Source: Escherichia phage vB_EcoM_SP1
Direction: 5' to 3' (one strand)
DNA length: 64,000 nt
Sequence record: MT682709.1
Under the pieces are notes generated by a model, which saw only the letters and a list, made by a program, of their open reading frames with translations, was not told where the DNA came from and ran no database searches. Below are positions 26,923 to 56,741 of the stretch, piece by piece. The stretch's first letter is position 1. Each line of letters opens with the position of its first letter. A program made the translations under genes and the position numbers.

Positions 26923-27151
26923 AGAATATATGGAGGCTGCTGAAAAGGCAGTCCGTGAATTAGCAATAGCTTATTATAATGAACATGGTAAATTTCCTGA
27001 TAGATACAGCGTACTTAAATCTGCTTTAACTCGTTCATATAAAAATATGCTATCAGAAGTAAGTGATATTATATACAAACATAAAGAACAAACGGGCCAA
27101 AGTCTTGATTACGACGAGACTTTTAAACAAGTACTAGGAATTAAGGAATAA
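26909..27151 (+). CDS. hypothetical protein (about 80 aa)
   Basis: In-frame ATG 26909 (alternative 26930) within a longer track ORF. Confidence 0.4.
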
Positions 27152-27152
27152 T

Positions 27153-27416
27153 ATGTTTAAAGTATATGGTTATGATAGCAACATTCATAAATGTGTGTAT
27201 TGCGATAATGCAAAACGTCTTTTGACCGTGAAGAAACAGCCGTTTGAATTTATCAACATTATGCCGGAAAAAGGTGTTTTTGATGATGAGAAAATCGCTG
27301 AGCTTCTGACTAAACTAGGTCGTGATACTCAAATCGGCTTGACAATGCCCCAGGTATTTGCTCCTGATGGAAGTCATATTGGTGGATTTGACCAACTGCG
27401 AGAATACTTTAAATGA
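27153..27416 (+). CDS. nrdC: thioredoxin/glutaredoxin NrdC
   Basis: 87 aa; MFKVYGYDSNIHKCVYCDNAKRLL... with CVYC active site; matches recalled T4 NrdC. Confidence 0.9.
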   Translation: MFKVYGYDSNIHKCVYCDNAKRLLTVKKQPFEFINIMPEKGVFDDEKIAELLTKLGRDTQIGLTMPQVFAPDGSHIGGFDQLREYFK

Positions 27417-27628
27417 TGCTCGAAGGAACTGATTATATCCATGACTACCGCGGAAGCGCGGTATATGTAGGTGATGAAGTTGCAGTTTATTATGGGTATG
27501 GAACTTTGATGACAGCCAAGGTTATTCAAATTAAAAATAATCGTGCTAAACTCGAAGTTTATTATTCTAATGGTGAAAAGTCTATTTCTAAGTGGAAATA
27601 CGGCGATTGTATGGTTAAATTGGGGTAA
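27413..27628 (+). CDS. hypothetical protein (71 aa)
   Basis: ATG overlapping nrdC stop. Confidence 0.5.
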   Translation: MMLEGTDYIHDYRGSAVYVGDEVAVYYGYGTLMTAKVIQIKNNRAKLEVYYSNGEKSISKWKYGDCMVKLG

Positions 27629-27630
27629 AT

Positions 27631-27801
27631 ATGATTTACGATATTAATGTATCACGAGCTCCGTCAATGGTTACTATTCCAGCCGAAGAACTAGATCGTC
27701 TTCAGAAAATTGAAGAACTTCTTTGGGAAATTGAATGTGCCCTGCCATCAGGACTAGAATCCTGGATTGATGATGAAGAACTTAATAAATTGCGAAATTA
27801 A
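27631..27801 (+). CDS. hypothetical small protein (56 aa)
   Basis: ATG 27631 right after previous stop; below ORF-track cutoff. Confidence 0.4.
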   Translation: MIYDINVSRAPSMVTIPAEELDRLQKIEELLWEIECALPSGLESWIDDEELNKLRN

Positions 27802-27811
27802 TTGGTGAAAA

Positions 27812-28132
27812 ATGACTATTGAAAATAAATTAGATGTTGATGCAGTTCTGAGCGAAATCATTGAAGACCATGATGCATTTTCGGAAAACTATGATTTCGA
27901 TTTTTCCGATTATCTTAAACCTGTCGAAATAGAAGACTGGGTGCAAGATGGTAAATGTCAATATCGTCAGTGTGTTTACTTTAGTCCAAAACATAATGTA
28001 CATGTGGCTGTAAATGAATCTCGCTCAGGTTCTTACCATTCTGACTGGTATTATGCAGTTCCTACCGTTGAACTGGTTGAGCTTCGAGAACGTGTAGTAA
28101 CTCAGACAGTACGAGAATGGATTACGCTATAA
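27812..28132 (+). CDS. hypothetical acidic protein (106 aa)
   Basis: ATG with GGTGAAAAATG leader. Confidence 0.55.
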   Translation: MTIENKLDVDAVLSEIIEDHDAFSENYDFDFSDYLKPVEIEDWVQDGKCQYRQCVYFSPKHNVHVAVNESRSGSYHSDWYYAVPTVELVELRERVVTQTVREWITL

Positions 28133-28255
28133 AACCTTGGTGGGCGGCTAGATGGGAAACTGTAGAGCCAGAGCCGGAAGAACCGGTTTACACTGATGAA
28201 GAAACAGTATATAATGAACCAACGATAAATGACTTAATTGATATGGAGATGGGAC

Positions 28256-28702
28256 ATGATTACAGTAGATAAGTGGTTTAGAATTAATCGTGCTGATACA
28301 GGGCTGTGTAATTACTGGCCGGAACTTAGTGCAGGTGCTGTCTTTAAAGTTCGTGAACTTGCAAAAGAATGTGAAGATGATATAGAGCCTGACACTGGAA
28401 TTATTGAAATTGAACTTTCTGATGGAAAGATTATTAACATCTACGATAAGCCAATTACGTATTGGTGCTTATGGAATACTGAATCAGTAGAAAATGGTGA
28501 AATTGAAGAAGTTGTAGAGAGAACTAATCAAGTTGTTCAGAAGCCCAAAGCCGATTTTCAAGGTGAACGTATTTCATACGCATTAGCTAAATTAGCTGCG
28601 CAAGAAAATAACGATGGCTATGAAGGAAATTTGATGCAAGCTGCGGCAGAATATATTGAATGGCTTGAAACTCAAAATTCTTTTTCTGACAGGACATTTT
28701 AA
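28256..28702 (+). CDS. hypothetical protein (148 aa)
   Basis: ATG 28256 in track frame (track begins at TTG 28238). Confidence 0.5.
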   Translation: MITVDKWFRINRADTGLCNYWPELSAGAVFKVRELAKECEDDIEPDTGIIEIELSDGKIINIYDKPITYWCLWNTESVENGEIEEVVERTNQVVQKPKADFQGERISYALAKLAAQENNDGYEGNLMQAAAEYIEWLETQNSFSDRTF

Positions 28703-28878
28703 TGAAAACCGAATTGGTTTATACTGAAAAGTTAAATGGCGGTAAGGTTTGGAAACTTTTTATTAAAGGACATTCTACGGACCCTCATATGACTACTTGC
28801 GTAGGAACTTATTCTCGTCCTACTAAAAAGATGATTCGACAGTATAAACGATTGCATCGAATGTTTTACAATACTTGA
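28702..28878 (+). CDS. hypothetical small basic protein (58 aa)
   Basis: ATG 28702 (TAATG overlap); below ORF-track cutoff; hairpin ACCCTTA...TAAGGGT downstream. Confidence 0.4.
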   Translation: MKTELVYTEKLNGGKVWKLFIKGHSTDPHMTTCVGTYSRPTKKMIRQYKRLHRMFYNT

Positions 28879-28919
28879 AAATAATAAATACCCTTATCTA
28901 TTTAAGGTAAGGGTTTATT

Positions 28920-29393
28920 ATGTTATTGACTGGCAAATTATATAAAGAAGAAAAACAGAAATTTTATGATGCACAAAACGGTAAATGCTTAATTTGCCAA
29001 CGAGAACTAAATCCTGATGTTCAAGCTAATCACCTAGATCATGACCATGAATTAAATGGACCAAAAGCAGGAAAGGTACGTGGATTGCTTTGTAATCTCT
29101 GTAATGCCGCAGAAGGTCAAATGAAGCATAAATTTAATCGTTCTGGCTTAAAGGGACAAGGTGTTGATTATCTTGAATGGTTAGAAAATTTACTTACTTA
29201 TTTAAAATCCGATTACACCCAAAATAATATTCACCCTAACTTTGTTGGAGATAAATCAAAGGAATTTTCTCGTTTAGGAAAAGAGGAAATGATGGCCGAG
29301 ATGCTTCAAAGAGGATTTGAATATAATGAATCTGACACCAAAACACAATTAATAGCTTCATTTAAGAAGCAGCTTAGAAAGAGTTTAAAATGA
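28920..29393 (+). CDS. 49: endonuclease VII (Holliday-junction resolvase)
   Basis: 157 aa; MLLTGKLYKEEKQKFYDAQNGKCLICQRELN... matches recalled T4 gp49. Confidence 0.9.
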   Translation: MLLTGKLYKEEKQKFYDAQNGKCLICQRELNPDVQANHLDHDHELNGPKAGKVRGLLCNLCNAAEGQMKHKFNRSGLKGQGVDYLEWLENLLTYLKSDYTQNNIHPNFVGDKSKEFSRLGKEEMMAEMLQRGFEYNESDTKTQLIASFKKQLRKSLK

Positions 29394-29927
29394 CAATTGA
29401 AAAAGAAATTGAAGGATTGATTCATAAAACTAATAAAGACCTTTTAAACGAGAATGCTAATAAAGATTCTCGTGTTTTTCCAACTCAACGGGACCTTATG
29501 GCTGGTATTGTGTCTAAACACATTGCCAAAAATATGGTCCCGTCTTTTATTATGAAAGCGCATGAAAGCGGAATTATCCATTTCCACGATATTGATTATT
29601 CCCCTGCTCTTCCATTTACTAATTGTTGTTTAGTAGATTTAAAAGGAATGCTTGAGAACGGATTTAAGCTAGGTAATGCACAGATTGAAACTCCTAAATC
29701 AATTGGCGTTGCTACTGCAATTATGGCACAAATTACTGCACAGGTTGCTTCTCACCAATACGGCGGAACGACTTTTGCGAATGTAGATAAAGTACTTTCT
29801 CCTTATGTTAAACGCACCTATGCAAAACATATTGAGGATGCAGAAAAATGGCAAATCGCTGATGCGTTGAATTATGCTCAATCTAAAACAGAAAAAGACG
29901 TATACGATGCATTCCAGGCGTATGAGT
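29390..29927 (+). CDS. nrdD: anaerobic ribonucleotide reductase NrdD, exon 1
   Basis: ATG overlaps gene 49 stop; exon ends at T29927 where exon ATGAGT can pair with intron GCTCAT (P1 with U.G at the splice site); in-frame stop follows in the intron. Confidence 0.8.
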
Positions 29928-30138
29928 TAATTTAATTCAGGCTCATGTAAAACCGGTCTAAACGGGGAACCTCTCTAGTAGACAATCCCGTGCTAAATGT
30001 TCTTTTGAACTAAATGCCTAACGACTAACCGTGATGAATGTAGCGGTGTAGAATAGAAGCTAATGCTATTCGAAACGGCCGGCATCGAAAGATGAAGATA
30101 TAGTCTAATCTGCATGGCGACATGCAGCAGTCATCTTG

Positions 30139-30146
30139 TATAAATA
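30139..30146 (+). promoter_or_regulatory. T4 late promoter (TATAAATA) inside the intron
   Basis: Exact TATAAATA 30 bp upstream of the I-TevII ATG. Confidence 0.6.
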
Positions 30147-30175
30147 AGATTATCTTATGAATACGAGGTGAAACA

Positions 30176-30946
30176 ATGAAATGGATAAAAAGACGTTGTA
30201 CTAAAATAAAAGATAAAGACGCATTTACATACTTAGTTAAGTTTTCTAATGGCGACATTTATATCGGTTATAAAAAATTTAGAACAATTAAAAACAAGCC
30301 CACAAACTGGAAAACTTACACAACGTCATCTAAGTATATAAATGAACGCTTAAAAACTGATACACCTACTAAATGGATAATTTTAAAAACATTTGATAGT
30401 TATAAAGATGCATTAAAACATGAAGAAGAGGTCATACGTAAATATTTTTATAGCAAAAAATGTTTAAATAAATCCATAGGCGGTAAAAAGTTTTATAAGC
30501 ATCCGGATACTGAAGAACATATTCAAAAATTAAGAGATGCTCATAAGGGTAAAGTGTTATCCGAATCTCATAAAAACAATATAAAATCTTCTGTAGCTGA
30601 ATATTATGCTAAAAACGGAAGATCTAAGGAACATGTGCAAAATAATATCAATAGTCGAAAAAGTAAAAAACAAGTATCGATAAAGCTTAAAAATAAAACT
30701 TTTAGAAGTTTTAAAAAAGCAGCGGAATATTTAAATTGCACTGAAAGTGAAGTCGAAACTCATCCTCTTGTTTTGAGTATTAAGACTACTATTCATAAAG
30801 TTCCTGAATATGTGGTTGTTGACGGTATTAAGTATACGTCTTATATAGAAGCAGCTAAAGCGCTAAATTTTCATCCTAGCACTATAAAAGAACGTTGCAT
30901 ATCTATGGACTATCCAAATTTTGTTGTTTCATATAAACGGGCATGA
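30176..30946 (+). CDS. I-TevII: GIY-YIG homing endonuclease I-TevII
   Basis: 256 aa; GIY-YIG motif YLVKFSNGDIYIGYK; encoded within the nrdD intron. Confidence 0.85.
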   Translation: MKWIKRRCTKIKDKDAFTYLVKFSNGDIYIGYKKFRTIKNKPTNWKTYTTSSKYINERLKTDTPTKWIILKTFDSYKDALKHEEEVIRKYFYSKKCLNKSIGGKKFYKHPDTEEHIQKLRDAHKGKVLSESHKNNIKSSVAEYYAKNGRSKEHVQNNINSRKSKKQVSIKLKNKTFRSFKKAAEYLNCTESEVETHPLVLSIKTTIHKVPEYVVVDGIKYTSYIEAAKALNFHPSTIKERCISMDYPNFVVSYKRA

Positions 30947-30960
30947 ATTTGCGACTCATG

Positions 30961-32252
30961 CTGAATATAATGATGAAGTAAATACACTTTTCAGCTCTAA
31001 CGGACAAACGCCTTTTGTAACAATTACATTTGGTACGGGAACTGACTGGACTGAACGAATGATTCAGAAAGCAATTCTGAAAAATCGCATTAAAGGTCTT
31101 GGTCGTGACGGGATAACTCCTATTTTTCCTAAGCTTGTTATGTTCGTTGAAGAAGGTGTTAATCTTTATAAAGACGATCCGAACTATGATATTAAGCAGC
31201 TTGCTTTAGAGTGCGCAAGCAAAAGAATGTATCCTGACATCATTTCTGCTAAGAACAATAAAGCTATCACCGGTTCATCTATTCCTGTTTCTCCAATGGG
31301 TTGCCGTAGTTTCTTGAGCGTATGGAAAGATTCGACTGGTAATGAAATTCTTGACGGTCGTAATAATCTTGGCGTTGTAACACTGAATCTTCCTCGCATC
31401 GCATTAGATTCTTATATTGGAACACAGTTCAATGAACAGAAATTTACTGAATTATTCAATGAGCGAATGGATTTATGTTTTGAAGCATTGATGTGTAGAA
31501 TTAGTTCCTTAAAGGGAGTTAAAGCTACTGTTGCTCCTATTCTTTACCAAGAAGGTGCATTCGGGGTTCGTCTTAAACCTGATGACGATATAATTGAGTT
31601 ATTTAAAAACGGTAGAAGTTCAGTGTCCTTAGGATACATTGGTATTCACGAATTGAATATTCTTGTCGGTCGTGATATTGGACGAGAAATTTTAACTAAA
31701 ATGAATGCTCATCTTAAACAGTGGACTGAAAGAACCGGATTTGCTTTTAGTTTATATTCTACTCCTGCTGAAAACCTTTGTTATCGCTTCTGTAAACTCG
31801 ATACAGAAAAATATGGAAGCGTAAAAGATGTTACCGATAAAGGCTGGTACACTAACAGTTTCCATGTTTCAGTAGAAGAAAATATTACTCCGTTTGAAAA
31901 GATTTCTCGTGAAGCGCCATATCATTTCATTGCGACAGGTGGTCACATTTCTTATGTTGAACTTCCTGATATGAAAAATAACTTAAAAGGTCTTGAGGCC
32001 GTATGGGATTATGCTGCACAACATTTAGATTATTTTGGTGTTAATATGCCAGTAGATAAATGTTTTACATGCGGAAGTACCCATGAAATGACTCCTACTG
32101 AAAACGGATTTGTTTGTTCTATTTGTGGAGAAACTGATCCTAAAAAGATGAATACCATAAGAAGAACATGTGGTTATTTGGGAAATCCGAACGAACGCGG
32201 ATTTAATCTCGGTAAAAATAAAGAAATCATGCATAGGGTTAAGCATCAATGA
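30961..32252 (+). CDS. nrdD: anaerobic ribonucleotide reductase NrdD, exon 2
   Basis: Glycyl-radical motif RRTCGYLG near the C-terminus; frame continuous with exon 1 after splicing (about 609 aa). Confidence 0.8.
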
Positions 32253-32719
32253 ATTATGATAGATTTTATCCTTGTGATTTTGTGAATGGCCCTGGTTGCA
32301 GGGTCGTTCTTTTCGTTACAGGTTGTTTGCATAAATGTGAAGGGTGTTATAATAAATCAACATGGAATGCTAGAAATGGTATTCCATTCACTGGTGAAAC
32401 ACTAGAGCAATTAATTGAATGTTTGAATAATGATTATATAGAAGGATTGACTATAACTGGAGGTGACCCTCTCTATCCTGATAACCGAGATGTTATTCAT
32501 TGCATTGTTCAAACAGTAAAAAATCTTTATCCCAATAAAAGCATTTGGTTGTGGACAGGATATAAATTTGAAGATATTAAACAACTAGAAATGCTTAAAT
32601 ATGTTGATGTTATTATTGATGGGAAGTATGAGAAAAATCTTCCGACTAAAAAGCTGTGGCGAGGATCAGATAATCAGCGACTTTGGTCAAATACCGATGG
32701 GGTGTGGAAACATGATTAA
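32249..32719 (+). CDS. nrdG: anaerobic RNR activating enzyme NrdG (radical SAM)
   Basis: CxxxCxxC motif (GCLHKCEGCYNK); ATG overlaps nrdD stop. Confidence 0.85.
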   Translation: MNYDRFYPCDFVNGPGCRVVLFVTGCLHKCEGCYNKSTWNARNGIPFTGETLEQLIECLNNDYIEGLTITGGDPLYPDNRDVIHCIVQTVKNLYPNKSIWLWTGYKFEDIKQLEMLKYVDVIIDGKYEKNLPTKKLWRGSDNQRLWSNTDGVWKHD

Positions 32720-32834
32720 ATTGAATTATATTATGGATACTATAAATGATATGATTTTTCATTTTGGTCCAGAATTTTATTCGCAGTATAGTTTAGTGCT
32801 TATCAATGCTTGGTTAATCAATTAAGGGTAAAAT

Positions 32835-33047
32835 ATGTATAAATTTCGTAAAGGTTTAGCTGATTTTCTTACAACTGTAACATTCTTTCTGTTTATGGCA
32901 GTTGGAGCTATTTTCCTTATTCCTTTTATTGCTATATTTTTCGTGATTAGTTTAATTTCTCCAGAAAAGGGCTTATCTTCCAGTGAGTTCAGTGAGCGTC
33001 TGGATAAAATTACTAACAAGCTGAATGCTGCTCTTAGTAAGGAATAG
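32835..33047 (+). CDS. small membrane protein (70 aa)
   Basis: Hydrophobic TM segment, AAGGGTAAAATATG leader. Confidence 0.5.
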   Translation: MYKFRKGLADFLTTVTFFLFMAVGAIFLIPFIAIFFVISLISPEKGLSSSEFSERLDKITNKLNAALSKE

Positions 33048-36754: not shown

Positions 36755-37957
36755 ATGAAAGTATGTATTTTTATGGCTCGAGGTCTTGAAGGTTGTGGTG
36801 TAACTAAATTTTCTCTTGAGCAACGTGATTGGTTTATTAAAAATGGTCATGAAGTAACTTTGGTTTATGCTAAAGATAAATCATTTACTCGTAATTGCGC
36901 ACATGATTATAAGTCATTTTCAATTCCGGTTTTATTGGCAAAAGAATACGATAAAACACTTAAGCTGGTAAATGATTGTGATATTCTAGTTATCAATTCA
37001 GTTCCTGCTACTTCAGTCGAAGAAGACACGATTAATAACTATAAAAAAATTATTGATAACATTAAACCTTCGGTTCGTGTTGTAGTTTATCAACATGACC
37101 ATTCTTCTCTTTCTTTGCGTCGAAATTTGGGATTAGAAGAAACTGTTCGTCGGGCTGATGTTATTTTTAGCCATTCTGATAATGGTGATTTTAATAAAGT
37201 TCTGATGAAAGAATGGTATCCAGAAACTGTTTCTCTGTTTGATGATATTGAAGAAGCGCCGACCGTATATAACTTTCAGCCTCCTATGGATATTGCGAAG
37301 GTTCGATCAACCTACTGGAAAGATGTTTCTGAAATTAACATGAATATCAACCGTTGGATTGGTCGTACGACTACATGGAAAGGTTTTTATCAGATGTTTG
37401 ATTTTCATGAAAAACATCTTAAACCTGCAGGACTAAGTACTATTATGGAAGGTCTGGAACGTTCTCCAGCGTTCATTCCTATTAAAGAAAAAGGAATTCC
37501 ATACGAGTATTATCGTCTTCATCAAGTAGACCAAATTAAAATTGCTCCTAATTTGCCAACGCAAATTCTTGACCGTTATGTAAATAGCGAAATGCTTGAA
37601 CGTATGAGTAAATCCGGATTTGGTTATCAGCTGAGTAAGTTGGACAAAAAATATCTACAACGTTCTTTAGAATATACTCATCTCGAGCTTGGTGCATGTG
37701 GAACAATTCCGGTATTTTGGAAATCTACGGGCGAAAATTTAAAATTCCGTATTGATAACACTCCATTAATTTCTCATGATAGCGGTATCATTTGGTTTGA
37801 TGAAAATGATATGGAATCAACATTTGAACGTATTAAAGAACTGTCATCTGACCGAGCTCTTTATGACCGTGAGCGAGAAAAAGCATATGAATTTTTGTAT
37901 CAGCATCAAGATTCAAGCTTCTGCTTTAAAGAACAGTTTGACATTATTACAAAATAA
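36755..37957 (+). CDS. agt: DNA alpha-glucosyltransferase
   Basis: 400 aa; MKVCIFMARGLEGCGVTKFSLEQRDWFIKNGHEVTLVYAKDKSF... highly similar to recalled T4 alpha-gt. Confidence 0.9.
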   Translation: MKVCIFMARGLEGCGVTKFSLEQRDWFIKNGHEVTLVYAKDKSFTRNCAHDYKSFSIPVLLAKEYDKTLKLVNDCDILVINSVPATSVEEDTINNYKKIIDNIKPSVRVVVYQHDHSSLSLRRNLGLEETVRRADVIFSHSDNGDFNKVLMKEWYPETVSLFDDIEEAPTVYNFQPPMDIAKVRSTYWKDVSEINMNINRWIGRTTTWKGFYQMFDFHEKHLKPAGLSTIMEGLERSPAFIPIKEKGIPYEYYRLHQVDQIKIAPNLPTQILDRYVNSEMLERMSKSGFGYQLSKLDKKYLQRSLEYTHLELGACGTIPVFWKSTGENLKFRIDNTPLISHDSGIIWFDENDMESTFERIKELSSDRALYDREREKAYEFLYQHQDSSFCFKEQFDIITK

Positions 37958-47955: not shown

Positions 47956-48207
47956 ATGGAAACTTTAGTAGCAGGTTCAATTTTTATGGTTTTAGTTTCA
48001 GGTGTGTTGGCTATTATTATATACATGCTTCCGTGGTTCATCGCCTTGATGCGTGGGTCAAAATCGACAGTAGGAATCTTTTTCACATCTTTACTGTTTA
48101 ACTGGTCAATCATTGGTTGGTTTATTACATTTATTTGGTCAATTGCGGGTGAAACTAAAAAATCTGTACAGCAAAATCAAGTAATTATCATCAGAGAGAA
48201 GGAATGA
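47956..48207 (+). CDS. imm: immunity (superinfection exclusion) membrane protein Imm
   Basis: 83 aa with two TM segments between genes 43 and 42, as T4 imm. Confidence 0.75.
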   Translation: METLVAGSIFMVLVSGVLAIIIYMLPWFIALMRGSKSTVGIFFTSLLFNWSIIGWFITFIWSIAGETKKSVQQNQVIIIREKE

Positions 48208-48353
48208 AAAGCAAAATTTTAGCAGTATTGCTTTTAATCTTGATGATTATAATAAGTATATACTATAGCGTAGCAGTTCCTTGTATGATTCCAACTATTA
48301 TTTTAGGCTGGAGCTTATTACTGTTACAAGTTAAATATGAATGTATCAATTGA
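48204..48353 (+). CDS. small hydrophobic peptide (49 aa)
   Basis: ATG overlapping imm stop (ATGA); below ORF-track cutoff. Confidence 0.4.
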   Translation: MKSKILAVLLLILMIIISIYYSVAVPCMIPTIILGWSLLLLQVKYECIN

Positions 48354-48360
48354 GGTTTAA

Positions 48361-49101
48361 ATGATTAATGACTCTATGACAGTTGAAGAAACCCGTCTTC
48401 ATTTGGGAATTGCATTAAAGGAAAAAGATTTCGTAGTTGATAAAACTGGTGTTAAAACTATTGAAATTATTGGCGCATCATTTGTAGCAGATGAACCTTT
48501 TATTTTTGGTGCTCTTAATGATGAATACATTCAACGTGAACTTGAATGGTATAAATCTAAAAGTTTGTTTGTTAAAGATATTCCAGGCGAAACGCCAAAG
48601 ATTTGGCAACAGGTAGCATCTTCTAAAGGTGAAATTAACTCGAATTATGGTTGGGCTATCTGGTCAGAAGATAACTATGCCCAGTATGATATGTGTTTAG
48701 CTGAACTTGGTCAAAATCCTGATTCTCGCCGCGGTATCATGATTTATACTCGTCCATCCATGCAGTTTGACTACAACAAAGATGGTATGTCAGATTTCAT
48801 GTGTACGAATACAGTACAGTACCTGATTCGTGATAAGAAAGTCAATGCAGTAGTAAGCATGCGTTCAAATGACGTGGTCTTTGGATTCCGTAATGATTAT
48901 GCATGGCAAAAATACGTACTAGATAAATTAGTATCTGATTTGAATGCAGGTGATTCAACTCGTCAGTATAAAGCAGGTTCCATTATATGGAATGTTGGAA
49001 GCCTTCATGTGTATTCTCGTCATTTTTATTTGGTTGACCATTGGTGGAAAACTGGCGAAACTCATATTGCGAAAAAAGATTATAACGGTGAGTGGAAATG
49101 A
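48361..49101 (+). CDS. 42: dCMP hydroxymethylase gp42
   Basis: 246 aa; thymidylate-synthase-like fold; position as T4 gene 42. Confidence 0.9.
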   Translation: MINDSMTVEETRLHLGIALKEKDFVVDKTGVKTIEIIGASFVADEPFIFGALNDEYIQRELEWYKSKSLFVKDIPGETPKIWQQVASSKGEINSNYGWAIWSEDNYAQYDMCLAELGQNPDSRRGIMIYTRPSMQFDYNKDGMSDFMCTNTVQYLIRDKKVNAVVSMRSNDVVFGFRNDYAWQKYVLDKLVSDLNAGDSTRQYKAGSIIWNVGSLHVYSRHFYLVDHWWKTGETHIAKKDYNGEWK

Positions 49102-49940
49102 TTCAATTCGTAATTCCAAGCTATCAACGCGTAGGGGCAGTTTCTGCCCTTGATATGTTTCCGACTGATTATGAACCTCATATTGTAGTACGTGAACACG
49201 AAGAAAAAGCTTATTATGACGCTTACGGGTCTAGAGCTAAAATTGTAGTTATTCCCGATGATGTAAATGGAATTGCTGGAACTCGTAAAGCAATTACTGA
49301 TATGTATGCAGGTCAACGAATTTGGATGATCGATGATGATACTACTATTCGTATGAGTTCAATGCGAAAGAAAGATGATCGTCGCTGCGTAGATAAAATT
49401 AATCAATTAACTCGTGAACAGTTCTATGAATTGATTCAATACGTTGAAGATGCCATGGATTGCGGGTATTATCATGGCCATGCTCGTCTACCTATTTTTA
49501 AAATTACTTCATCTTGGGGTAATTATCGTGAAAATTCATATGGATTCACGAATACATGGTATGACCTTGGAAAACTTACAACAGAACAAATTGGGTATGG
49601 AAAAATTGATTTATGCGAAGATATGTATGCATTTCTCAATTTAATTAATCAAGGTTATCCGCATTTGGCCTTGTTCAAATATCTGGTTGTATCCGGAAAA
49701 GCACAAGCCCCCGGTGGATGTAGTTCAATTCGTAGCAATTCTAAACATAATAGAGCGCTTGAGCAAATCAATAGAGAATTTCCAGAGCAAGCTCGTTGGA
49801 AAACATCGAATATTGAAAAGAGAAAATCGTTGGGTGAAGAAGATGAGCCATTAAAGGTTCTTCGCATGTGTGTTTCGCGCAAAGAAAAATCAGAAGCGTT
49901 TCATAAGTTTAATGCTATTCATCCAATAGTAGTTGATTAA
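49098..49940 (+). CDS. putative GT-A fold glycosyltransferase (DxD motif) at the T4 beta-gt position
   Basis: 280 aa from ATG 49098 (ATGA overlap with gene 42); WMIDDDTT motif; not similar to recalled T4 beta-gt. Confidence 0.6.
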   Translation: MIQFVIPSYQRVGAVSALDMFPTDYEPHIVVREHEEKAYYDAYGSRAKIVVIPDDVNGIAGTRKAITDMYAGQRIWMIDDDTTIRMSSMRKKDDRRCVDKINQLTREQFYELIQYVEDAMDCGYYHGHARLPIFKITSSWGNYRENSYGFTNTWYDLGKLTTEQIGYGKIDLCEDMYAFLNLINQGYPHLALFKYLVVSGKAQAPGGCSSIRSNSKHNRALEQINREFPEQARWKTSNIEKRKSLGEEDEPLKVLRMCVSRKEKSEAFHKFNAIHPIVVD

Positions 49941-50017
49941 TGCCTAAATTTATTGTGTTATAATTACTCTATCTTTAACCGGTGAGGAAAATATAATGAT
50001 GCCTATGGAAAAAATGA

Positions 50018-51199
50018 ATGTCTATTGCAGATTTAAAATCCCGTTTGATTAAAGCTTCCACTTCTAAAATGACTGCTGAACTGACTACATCTAAATTCTT
50101 TAATGAAAAGGATGTAATCCGTACAAAAATCCCAATGCTTAATATTGCTATTTCCGGTGCGATTGATGGTGGTATGCAGTCTGGTTTAACCATTTTTGCA
50201 GGTCCTTCTAAACACTTTAAATCAAATATGTCTTTGACTATGGTTGCGGCGTATTTGAACAAATATCCTGATGCAGTTTGTCTATTTTATGATAGCGAAT
50301 TTGGTATCACTCCAGCTTATTTGCGATCCATGGGAGTTGACCCGGAACGAGTAATTCATACACCAATTCAGTCAGTTGAACAACTGAAAATTGATATGGT
50401 GAATCAGCTTGAAGCTATTGAGCGTGGTGAAAAGGTTATTGTATTCATCGACTCAATCGGTAATATGGCTTCTAAGAAAGAAACGGAAGATGCCTTGAAT
50501 GAAAAATCTGTGGCAGATATGACTCGTGCTAAATCGCTGAAGTCATTATTCCGTATTGTTACTCCTTATTTTAGTATTAAAAATATTCCATGCGTTGCGG
50601 TTAACCATACAATTGAAACAATTGAAATGTTTAGTAAAACCGTGATGACAGGTGGTACAGGCGTAATGTATTCGGCTGATACTGTATTCATTATCGGTAA
50701 GCGCCAGATTAAAGATGGTTCTGATCTTCAGGGGTATCAATTTGTTCTAAATGTAGAAAAATCTCGTACCGTTAAAGAAAAAAGTAAATTCTTTATTGAT
50801 GTTAAATTTGACGGTGGTATCGATCCTTATTCTGGATTGTTAGATATGGCTCTTGAATTAGGATTTGTAGTAAAACCTAAAAATGGCTGGTATGCTCGTG
50901 AATTTCTTGACGAAGAAACAGGCGAGATGATTCGCGAAGAAAAATCTTGGCGTGCAAAAGATACCAACTGCACTACATTCTGGGGTCCTTTATTTAAGCA
51001 TCAACCATTCCGAGATGCTATTAAACGTGCTTATCAATTAGGTGCTATTGATAGTAATGAAATTGTTGAAGCCGAAGTTGATGAATTAATTAACTCAAAG
51101 GTTGAAAAATTTAAATCTCCAGAAAGTAAAAGTAAATCAGCAGCTGATTTAGAAACTGACCTAGATCAGTTAAGTGATATGGAAGAATTTAATGAATAA
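50018..51199 (+). CDS. uvsX: RecA-like recombinase UvsX
   Basis: 393 aa; MSIADLKSRLIKASTSK...; Walker A GPSKHFKS; matches recalled T4 UvsX. Confidence 0.9.
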   Translation: MSIADLKSRLIKASTSKMTAELTTSKFFNEKDVIRTKIPMLNIAISGAIDGGMQSGLTIFAGPSKHFKSNMSLTMVAAYLNKYPDAVCLFYDSEFGITPAYLRSMGVDPERVIHTPIQSVEQLKIDMVNQLEAIERGEKVIVFIDSIGNMASKKETEDALNEKSVADMTRAKSLKSLFRIVTPYFSIKNIPCVAVNHTIETIEMFSKTVMTGGTGVMYSADTVFIIGKRQIKDGSDLQGYQFVLNVEKSRTVKEKSKFFIDVKFDGGIDPYSGLLDMALELGFVVKPKNGWYAREFLDEETGEMIREEKSWRAKDTNCTTFWGPLFKHQPFRDAIKRAYQLGAIDSNEIVEAEVDELINSKVEKFKSPESKSKSAADLETDLDQLSDMEEFNE

Positions 51200-54925: not shown

Positions 54926-55954
54926 ATGTCATCAATACCTTGGATTGATAATGAGTTTGCATATCGTGCGCTAGCTCATTTACCTAAATTCGCACAAGTA
55001 AATAATAGTTCAACTTTTAAATTACGGTTTAGATGTCCTGTTTGTGGAGATTCAAAAACCGACCAAAATAAAGCCCGTGGATGGTATTATGGTGATAATA
55101 ATGAAGGAAATATTCATTGTTATAACTGTAACTATCATGCACCAATCGGAATATATTTAAAGGAGTTTGAACCTGATTTATATCGTGAGTATATCTTTGA
55201 AATAAGAAAAGAAAAAGGTAAAAGTCGTCCAGTAGAAAAACCTAAAGAACTTCCTAAACAACCTGAGAAGAAAATAATTAAATCTCTTCCGTCATGCATT
55301 AGATTAGATAAACTGGCGGAAGACCATCCAATTATAAAATACGTAAAAGCTCGTTGTATTCCAAAGGATAAATGGAAATATCTTTGGTTTACAACTGAAT
55401 GGCCTAAATTAGTTAATAGTATAGCACCAGGAACATATAAAAAGGAAATACCTGAGCCTCGTCTTGTTATTCCAATTTATAATGCTAATGGAAAAGCTGA
55501 GTCTTTTCAGGGACGTGCATTAAAGAAAGATGCTCCCCAAAAATATATCACCATCAAAGCTTATCCTGAGGCAACAAAAATTTATGGTGTTGAACGGGTT
55601 AAAGATGGCGATGTATATGTTCTAGAAGGACCTATAGATTCGCTTTTTATTGAAAATGGTATAGCTATTACAGGCGGTCAATTAGACCTAGAAATTGTTC
55701 CATTTAAAGATAGACGTGTATGGGTTTTAGATAATGAACCTCGTCACCCTGACACTATTAAACGAATGACTAAATTAGTTGATGCAGGAGAAAGGGTTAT
55801 GTTTTGGGACAAATCTCCCTGGAAATCAAAAGATGTTAATGATATGATTAGAAAGGAAGGTGCAACCCCTGAACAAATTATGGAATATATGAAAAATAAT
55901 ATTGCCCAAGGGTTGATGGCTAAAATGCGGCTATCTAAATATGCTAAGATTTAA
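54926..55954 (+). CDS. 61: DNA primase gp61
   Basis: 342 aa; zinc-binding CPVCGDS...CYNCNYH and TOPRIM-like region; position as T4 gene 61. Confidence 0.9.
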   Translation: MSSIPWIDNEFAYRALAHLPKFAQVNNSSTFKLRFRCPVCGDSKTDQNKARGWYYGDNNEGNIHCYNCNYHAPIGIYLKEFEPDLYREYIFEIRKEKGKSRPVEKPKELPKQPEKKIIKSLPSCIRLDKLAEDHPIIKYVKARCIPKDKWKYLWFTTEWPKLVNSIAPGTYKKEIPEPRLVIPIYNANGKAESFQGRALKKDAPQKYITIKAYPEATKIYGVERVKDGDVYVLEGPIDSLFIENGIAITGGQLDLEIVPFKDRRVWVLDNEPRHPDTIKRMTKLVDAGERVMFWDKSPWKSKDVNDMIRKEGATPEQIMEYMKNNIAQGLMAKMRLSKYAKI

Positions 55955-56151
55955 ATTAACCCAACTAAAGCAAATGCTAAATCCACGAATGTATCAAGAG
56001 TAATTACTGGAATACTAACGCCATGAGCAATAGCAACTGGTGATAAAACAAAATTCCAAAGTAAAATTCCTATCATAGCAGAAATAGTAAAAGCTATACG
56101 TTTTTTATTACCTTTGATGGCATTAACAAGTGCCATTAATTTTTGTACCAT
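55951..56151 (-). CDS. small membrane protein (66 aa) on the opposite strand
   Basis: Reverse strand reads TAAGGAGGACATATG (strong SD plus ATG at 56151); two hydrophobic segments; stop overlaps the end of gene 61. Confidence 0.55.
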   Translation of the reverse strand: MVQKLMALVNAIKGNKKRIAFTISAMIGILLWNFVLSPVAIAHGVSIPVITLDTFVDLAFALVGLI

Positions 56152-56222: not shown

Positions 56223-56741
56223 ATGGCATACTTTAATGAATGTTCACAATTGATCGAAGGCGCTGATAAAGCTCAAAATGAATACTGGGATATTCTCGGT
56301 GATGAAAAAGACCCGCTGCAAGTTATGCTTGATATGCAAAAATCTCTGCAAGTTCGTTTAGCTAAAGATAAACCTGAATATAACCGTCATCCTGATGATT
56401 TGGCTACTGCTGGTGAAGTTGTTGATTGGCTACGTAATCAGAAAGATTATATTGACGATGAATTCCGTGAACTTCTGACATCTCTTGGCGGTATGAGCAA
56501 TGGCGAAAAAGATGCATCTGCTGTATGGAAGCCTTGGAAAGCTCAACATGGTGAACGTCGTGAAACTCTGATTACTGATTTGTCTCCACAAGACCAGTTG
56601 GAAATTAAATTCGAAATGATTGATATTCTTCATTTCGTTCTGAACATGTTCCAAGGTCTTGGTCTTACGGCTGAAGAAATCTTTAAACTTTATTATCTGA
56701 AAAATGCTGAAAACTTCGCTCGTCAAGACCGAGGTTATTAA
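56223..56741 (+). CDS. 56: dCTPase/dCTP pyrophosphatase gp56 (MazG-like)
   Basis: 172 aa from ATG 56223; MAYFNECSQLIEGADKAQNEYWD...; the longer track ORF starting at 56130 is an upstream extension. Confidence 0.85.
   Translation: MAYFNECSQLIEGADKAQNEYWDILGDEKDPLQVMLDMQKSLQVRLAKDKPEYNRHPDDLATAGEVVDWLRNQKDYIDDEFRELLTSLGGMSNGEKDASAVWKPWKAQHGERRETLITDLSPQDQLEIKFEMIDILHFVLNMFQGLGLTAEEIFKLYYLKNAENFARQDRGY

Follow-up and report, generated by a model that had tools for sequence, protein, structure and literature searches.

The gene at positions 49098..49940 of the DNA analyzed here (the window, a stretch of 64,000 nucleotides from Escherichia phage vB_EcoM_SP1, MT682709.1) is very probably the Tequatrovirus orthologue of the beta-glucosyl-HMC-alpha-glucosyltransferase of phages T2 and T6, which is the best explanation of the data. 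This enzyme, also named ba-gt, g-gt, EC 2.4.1.28, or, in Pfam, TAGT, is a single-domain GT-A glycosyltransferase of about 32 kDa. Orthology, synteny, intactness, the GT-A fold, the complete set of family-invariant residues, the presence of alpha-gt, and the absence of a T4-type beta-gt from the window are established in our analysis. The enzyme, the gene, its fold, and its distribution have all been published already, so the gene described here is a textbook one at its customary locus. Its activity belongs to classical biochemistry, reportedly from the Kornberg and Lehman laboratories at around 1960 to 1962, and the gene is said to have been cloned by Winkler and Rüger in 1993.

The gene is an intact open reading frame of 280 amino acids on the plus strand, running from the ATG at 49098 to the TAA at 49938-49940. 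The start codon and the TGA stop of gene 42, which precedes it, overlap in the sequence ATGA (49098-49101), and GGTGAG lies directly 5' of the start. A GTG at 49092 is merely the mechanical first start in the ORF list, and the gene as annotated in public records begins at the ATG and spans 843 nt. The 843-nt gene has 100% nucleotide identity to the copy in Escherichia phage vB_Eco_F25 (OP870144, genus Tequatrovirus). Since the same gene is found at a nucleotide identity of at least 90% in 474 phage records of the phage collection and its product matches PHROG and Pfam families, it is not a chance ORF. Scans around 49098..49940 stayed at chance level both for promoters (12 promoter-like sites, 11.5 expected) and for terminators (1 terminator-like site, 1.2 expected); the sole terminator-like hairpin, at 49132..49152, falls inside the ORF and was given no interpretation.

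The product is identical to the T2 protein of the same locus at 273 of 280 residues (98%, over the full 280 aa) and to the annotated T6 "ggt" product at 253 of 261 (97%), which is the homology check that had been proposed in an earlier note on this DNA. It matches PHROG 842, "beta-glucosyl-HMC-alpha-glucosyltransferase," with an E value of 5.9e-89 over residues 1-275, and the Pfam family TAGT (TET-associated glycosyltransferase, PF20691) with 40.4 bits against a gathering cutoff of 27.5. The TAGT match places residues 3-207 on profile positions 2-205 of 205, that is, the whole domain. No match to Glycos_transf_2 (PF00535, CAZy GT2) was found even at E values up to 1, and the likeness to GT2 is purely structural. 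NCBIfam gave no match for either the ba-gt or the alpha-gt protein. The PDB sequence search returned only chance matches to RNA-binding proteins (E of at least 0.77) and no phage glucosyltransferase entry, so the protein has no relative with a solved structure. The C-terminal tail also gave a weak Pfam match to "RNA_binding," which fell under its cutoff (E = 0.16) and was dismissed.

The genes flanking the locus, and those of the hydroxymethylcytosine (hmC) pathway, were identified by tblastn with T4 proteins, and identities in the following list are to T4.

36755..37957, plus strand: alpha-glucosyltransferase (a-gt), the maker of the alpha-glucosyl-hmC acceptor, 91% over 400 aa
44690..47386: gp43, 99%
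47956..48207: Imm, 96%
48361..49101, plus strand: gene 42, dCMP hydroxymethylase, which makes hm-dCMP, 96%
49098..49940, plus strand: ba-gt (TAGT) gene, beta-glucosyl-HMC-alpha-glucosyltransferase, 280 aa, GT-A fold
50018..51199, plus strand: uvsX, the downstream neighbor, 90%
56223..56741, plus strand: gene 56, dCTPase/dUTPase, which excludes dCTP, 74%

The protein thus lies between gene 42 and uvsX, as the earlier note had it, in the slot that T4 fills with b-gt and the homing endonuclease gene segA; in the window, this interval holds ba-gt alone, as the same slot holds ba-gt in T2, T6, F25, Geo, and NR1. No segA homologue was found in the window with the T4 protein, and 77 nt (49941..50017) separate ba-gt from uvsX. 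The conservation of alpha-gt claimed in the same note is also borne out, as the product of 36755..37957 matches PDB 1XV5 at an E value of 7e-257. The genes for gp42, gp56, and alpha-gt are all present in the 64-kb window. The 56-61 interval consists of the primase gene (gene 61, 54926..55954), a reverse ORF of 201 nt (55951..56151), and then gene 56. No Dam homologue was detected in this interval or elsewhere in the window. NR1 has the same dam-less layout, including the 201-nt reverse ORF, whereas T4 and Geo carry dam between the two genes.

Some other features of the region were recorded along the way. Between imm and gene 42, there is a strongly hydrophobic ORF of 49 codons (48204..48353, plus strand), for which the NR1 and Geo records have an annotated counterpart (NR1_177 and GEO_049) and those of F25 and T4 have none. 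The gp56 protein is only 74% identical to that of T4, with neighbors at 90 to 99%. Compared by blastn with vB_Eco_F25, the window is a mosaic, with 99.25% identity over 33059-63998 and blocks of 94 to 98% over 27103-33035, where the spacing is rearranged. For a 25-kb stretch of the window, the best identity among the records of the phage collection is about 96.6%. SP1 is therefore a further mosaic phage of the genus Tequatrovirus, distinct from F25.

The ba-gt protein occurs at an identity of at least 95% in 471 phage records, and a T4-type beta-gt occurs at 90% or more in only 29. With T4 beta-gt as the tblastn query, no homologue appeared in the 64-kb window or in the remainder of the F25 genome. 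T4-like coliphages usually have the pair alpha-gt plus ba-gt, which is the norm for the genus Tequatrovirus. What the earlier note took for a departure from T4 is therefore the majority state of the genus, already described, and T4 is the exception. Published work agrees that an alpha-GT or a beta-GT paired with TAGT is the rule, with alpha-GT plus TAGT being common and the alpha plus beta pair of T4 being rare (PMC13216743).

Outside these coliphages, T4-like phages of Klebsiella, Enterobacter, Salmonella, Citrobacter, and Serratia carry TAGT proteins 47 to 65% identical to that of the window (for example, Salmonella phage S16, NC_020416, 20781-21608). In several of these phages, a beta-gt feature is annotated under or beside the TAGT match, which gives a beta-GT plus TAGT pairing; they include one phage of Klebsiella and others of Enterobacter, Salmonella (S16 type), Citrobacter, and Serratia. 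Homologues of T4 beta-gt that are about 49 to 53% identical are found in phages of those same hosts. The labels in public records are uneven: gene 42 is widely mislabeled "thymidylate synthase," the T4-type b-gt genes of RB55 (KM607002) and 236Ecol005PP (PP434423) are labeled "beta-glucosyl-HMC-alpha-glucosyl-transferase," and many true ba-gt genes are labeled "hypothetical protein."

A confident AlphaFold2 model of the protein, built from 14 homologues (pLDDT 87.9, pTM 0.87), has one Rossmann-like alpha/beta/alpha domain. Its DxD motif comes after a central strand (residues 74-78), a position typical of GT-A enzymes, and a Foldseek search of BFVD with this model returned TAGT proteins. The resemblance to cellular GT2-like GT-A enzymes is structural, at only 8 to 16% identity. 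The GT-A assignment made earlier from the sequence is thus upheld, and the T6 TAGT has likewise been modeled with AF3 as a GT-A enzyme, sister to GT2 (PMC13216743). The size of the family became apparent only with a full HMM scan, which gave 2597 TAGT family representatives at E values up to 1e-3; a word-indexed protein search reached just 10 to 15 relatives even with a profile, and the scan of IMG/VR gave only 5 loci. Conservation was assessed in an alignment of 97 diverse representatives, 19 to 64% identical, in which the following elements stand out.

49128..49130, plus strand: codon of R11, in the N-terminal IPSYxR nucleotide-binding strand and loop, Arg in 97 of 97 and His in T2
49332..49340, plus strand: DxD motif D79-D80-D81, in WMIDDDTT, with D80 in 97 of 97 and D79 and D81 in 96 of 97 each
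49617..49622, plus strand: E174-D175, the "ED" motif, with D175 in 97 of 97 and E174 in 83 of 97
49713..49733, plus strand: conserved loop G206-G207 to R212, with G207 in 97 of 97 and G206 and R212 in 95 of 97 each

Four residues (R11, D80, D175, and G207) are present in every representative, and I6, P7, D79, D81, G186, G206, and R212 are near-invariant. The window protein keeps R11, DDD at 79-81, D175, GG at 206-207, R212, and all of the other invariant or near-invariant residues. The motif WMIDDDTT noticed previously corresponds to residues 76-83 (49323..49346) of the 280-aa ORF. The loop around G206 is flexible in the model, with pLDDT below 50 at residues 203-208. By analogy with GT2-like enzymes, DDD may be the binding site for the metal and the UDP-sugar diphosphate, and D175 is a candidate for the catalytic base of an inverting GT-A enzyme. 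An inverting mechanism with E174-D175 as the base would fit a beta-linked product from UDP-alpha-glucose.

The donor, acceptor, and linkage of the enzyme, and the composition of the DNA, can be predicted by analogy with what has been published for T2, T6, and near-identical isolates. The gp42 enzyme would make hm-dCMP and gp56 would remove dCTP, and replication would therefore lay down hmC throughout the DNA. The alpha-gt product would add an alpha-linked glucose to roughly three of every four hmC residues, and ba-gt would then use UDP-glucose to attach a second glucose by a beta-1,6 linkage to the first, giving alpha-gentiobiosyl-hmC. The T2/T6 enzymes of PF20691 have been described as glucosylating alpha-glucosylated hmC to the gentiobiosyl base (PMC13216743, NAR 2026), and deletion of ba-gt in T6 leaves only alpha-glucosyl-hmC, with loss of gentiobiosyl-hmC and increased sensitivity to Brig1 (PMC11078745, Nature 2024). 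Nucleosides have also been measured by LC-MS in ten Tequatrovirus isolates that encode alpha-GT as well as a TAGT syntenic with the beta-GT of T4, and hmC, alpha-glucosyl-hmC, and alpha-gentiobiosyl-hmC were found, with no beta-glucosyl-hmC (PMC13390438, AEM 2026). We can thus expect that the virion DNA contains naked hmC, alpha-glucosyl-hmC, and gentiobiosyl-hmC and no beta-glucosyl-hmC. The T2/T6-style modification pattern suggested in the earlier note is accordingly supported at the sequence level, as the protein is close to both T2 and T6 enzymes, alpha-gt is present, and the window has no T4 beta-gt homologue.

The proportion of diglucosylation is not readable from sequence, as the T2 and T6 enzymes differ at few residues, yet their DNAs have 5% and 72% gentiobiosyl-hmC. 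In the measured isolates, the ratio of hmC, alpha-glucosyl-hmC, and gentiobiosyl-hmC is about 1:2:2 in EL, BGP, and Geo, and NR1 and six others have about one-third hmC and two-thirds gentiobiosyl-hmC (PMC13390438). We lean toward a T6/NR1-like profile of the latter kind for the window, rather than the 5% or so of T2, because of the R11 allele and the dam-less 56-61 layout shared with NR1. Both are correlations, and this is the weakest step of the proposal.

A different outcome would be an activity as low as that in T2, in which the gene is present and the DNA is mostly alpha-monoglucosylated, with a few per cent gentiobiosyl-hmC. We consider this unlikely, even if T2 itself, with a gene 98% identical, makes only about 5% gentiobiosyl-hmC (PMC11078745), the ratio is not fixed by sequence alone, and an intermediate ratio of about 1:2:2 is seen in Geo-type phages (PMC13390438). 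Against it, the window keeps the family-invariant R11, changed to His only in T2; the ten natural isolates have roughly 40 to 67% gentiobiosyl-hmC (PMC13390438), with R11 in the two checked, Geo and NR1; and the window shares with the high-gentiobiosyl NR1 group a 56-61 interval that lacks dam.

The change R11H is present in all three independent T2 records (AP018813, MH751506, and LC348380), and R11 is kept in T6, Geo, NR1, the five IMG/VR relatives, the window, and every other Tequatrovirus copy examined. The T2 ba-gt may therefore be a hypomorphic allele, with R11H explaining its low diglucosylation. A stronger version holds that the R11 allele, which the window shares with nearly all natural isolates, is fully active and that the difference between T2 (about 5%) and T6 (about 72%) comes from R11H, fixed in the T2 laboratory lineage, and not from regulation or alpha-gt. 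This version is tentative and on balance doubtful, though the evidence mildly favors it, and it concerns T2 more than the window; if true, SP1 DNA would be T6-like and heavily diglucosylated, with T2 as a natural hypomorph. The T6 records have lesions of their own, as MH550421 has a TAG (amber) at codon 10 of ba-gt, with the CDS annotated from Met20, and in AP018814 a 3-nt deletion shortens WMIDDDTT to WMIDDTT, with one Asp lost. These could be laboratory stock divergence or sequencing errors. R11H and the T6-record lesions are the only points possibly worth a short follow-up, and they are about T2 and T6, not the window.

It is very improbable that the protein is a TAGT enzyme of different specificity, using another sugar, making another linkage, or taking naked hmC as the acceptor. 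The family is large, with its 2597 representatives, and TAGT also occurs with beta-GT or alone (PMC13216743), so specificities within it must vary. However, the window protein is 97 to 98% identical to the T2, T6, Geo, and NR1 proteins, the products of which are known, which makes a change of specificity very unlikely, and all of the substitutions lie outside the invariant positions. Finally, a diverged orthologue of T4 beta-glucosyltransferase, placing a first beta-linked glucose directly on hmC, is suggested by position alone, in the slot of b-gt in T4, and can be dismissed as next to impossible: orthology is already refuted at the homology level by the sequence comparisons, with a BLASTP E value of 3.4 against T4 b-gt, no Pfam beta-gt match, and no b-gt entry from the PDB sequence search, in line with the earlier remark that the protein does not resemble T4 beta-gt; the modeled fold is GT-A against the GT-B of T4 b-gt (PMC13216743); and phages with near-identical genes have no beta-glucosyl-hmC by LC-MS (PMC13390438).

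The assignment to the T2/T6-type enzyme has a consequence for annotation, as the gene should be named beta-glucosyl-HMC-alpha-glucosyltransferase (TAGT), where vB_Eco_F25, the closest record, has just "glycosyltransferase." The consequences for sensitivity to host defense that had been anticipated in the earlier note are documented in print (PMC11078745; bioRxiv 10.64898/2026.02.25.707755; PMC13390438). The predicted DNA would be partially protected from two enzymes, namely Brig1, a glycosylase that acts on alpha-glucosyl-hmC, and the deglucosylase BapA, which cannot strip gentiobiosyl-hmC (bioRxiv 10.64898/2026.02.25.707755). With about a quarter to a third of its hmC left naked, it would remain a target of the 5hmC glycosylase Brig3, which restricts T2/T6-type phages via the approximately 25% of naked hmC (bioRxiv 10.64898/2026.02.25.707755). 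Exposure to GmrSD-family enzymes such as BrxU would also persist, as BrxU cuts all of these hmC forms (PMC13390438). Such predictions are useful for choosing phages against hosts with known defense systems.

Among known systems, T6 provides the genetically tested reference in the same slot, under the names ba-gt, g-gt, and TAGT, and it differs from the window by few substitutions (Y40N, D55G, R106H, and others); its deposited sequences each carry an apparent lesion, and the window gene has neither. The T2 gene (AP018813, 22282-23124; "ggt" in MH751506 and "b-gt" in LC348380) also codes for 280 aa in the same slot and likewise overlaps gene 42 by ATGA, and its seven substitutions include R11H. 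Geo (vB_Eco_Geo), with the same synteny and 8 of 280 residues different from the window, has a Dam gene and one further ORF in its 56-61 interval and shows a lower gentiobiosyl fraction (PMC13390438). The NR1 protein (vB_Eco_NR1) differs at 6 of 280 residues; both phages belong to the Durham collection, and their DNA composition was measured by HPLC/MS. T4 b-gt and the T2/T6-type enzyme both take UDP-glucose as the donor and give a beta-linked product, that is, they are inverting. They differ in the acceptor, which is hmC itself for T4 b-gt and the first glucose for the T2/T6-type enzyme, and in architecture, as T4 b-gt (PDB 1JG7 as cited in PMC13216743) has a two-domain GT-B fold and 351 aa, compared to GT-A and 280 aa in the window. 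Cellular GT2-like GT-A enzymes (for example, TarS 5TZE, TarP 6H1J, RmlT 8BZ4, and AvpGT 9JMA) act on a polysaccharide or teichoic acid, whereas the acceptor of TAGT is a sugar on duplex DNA.
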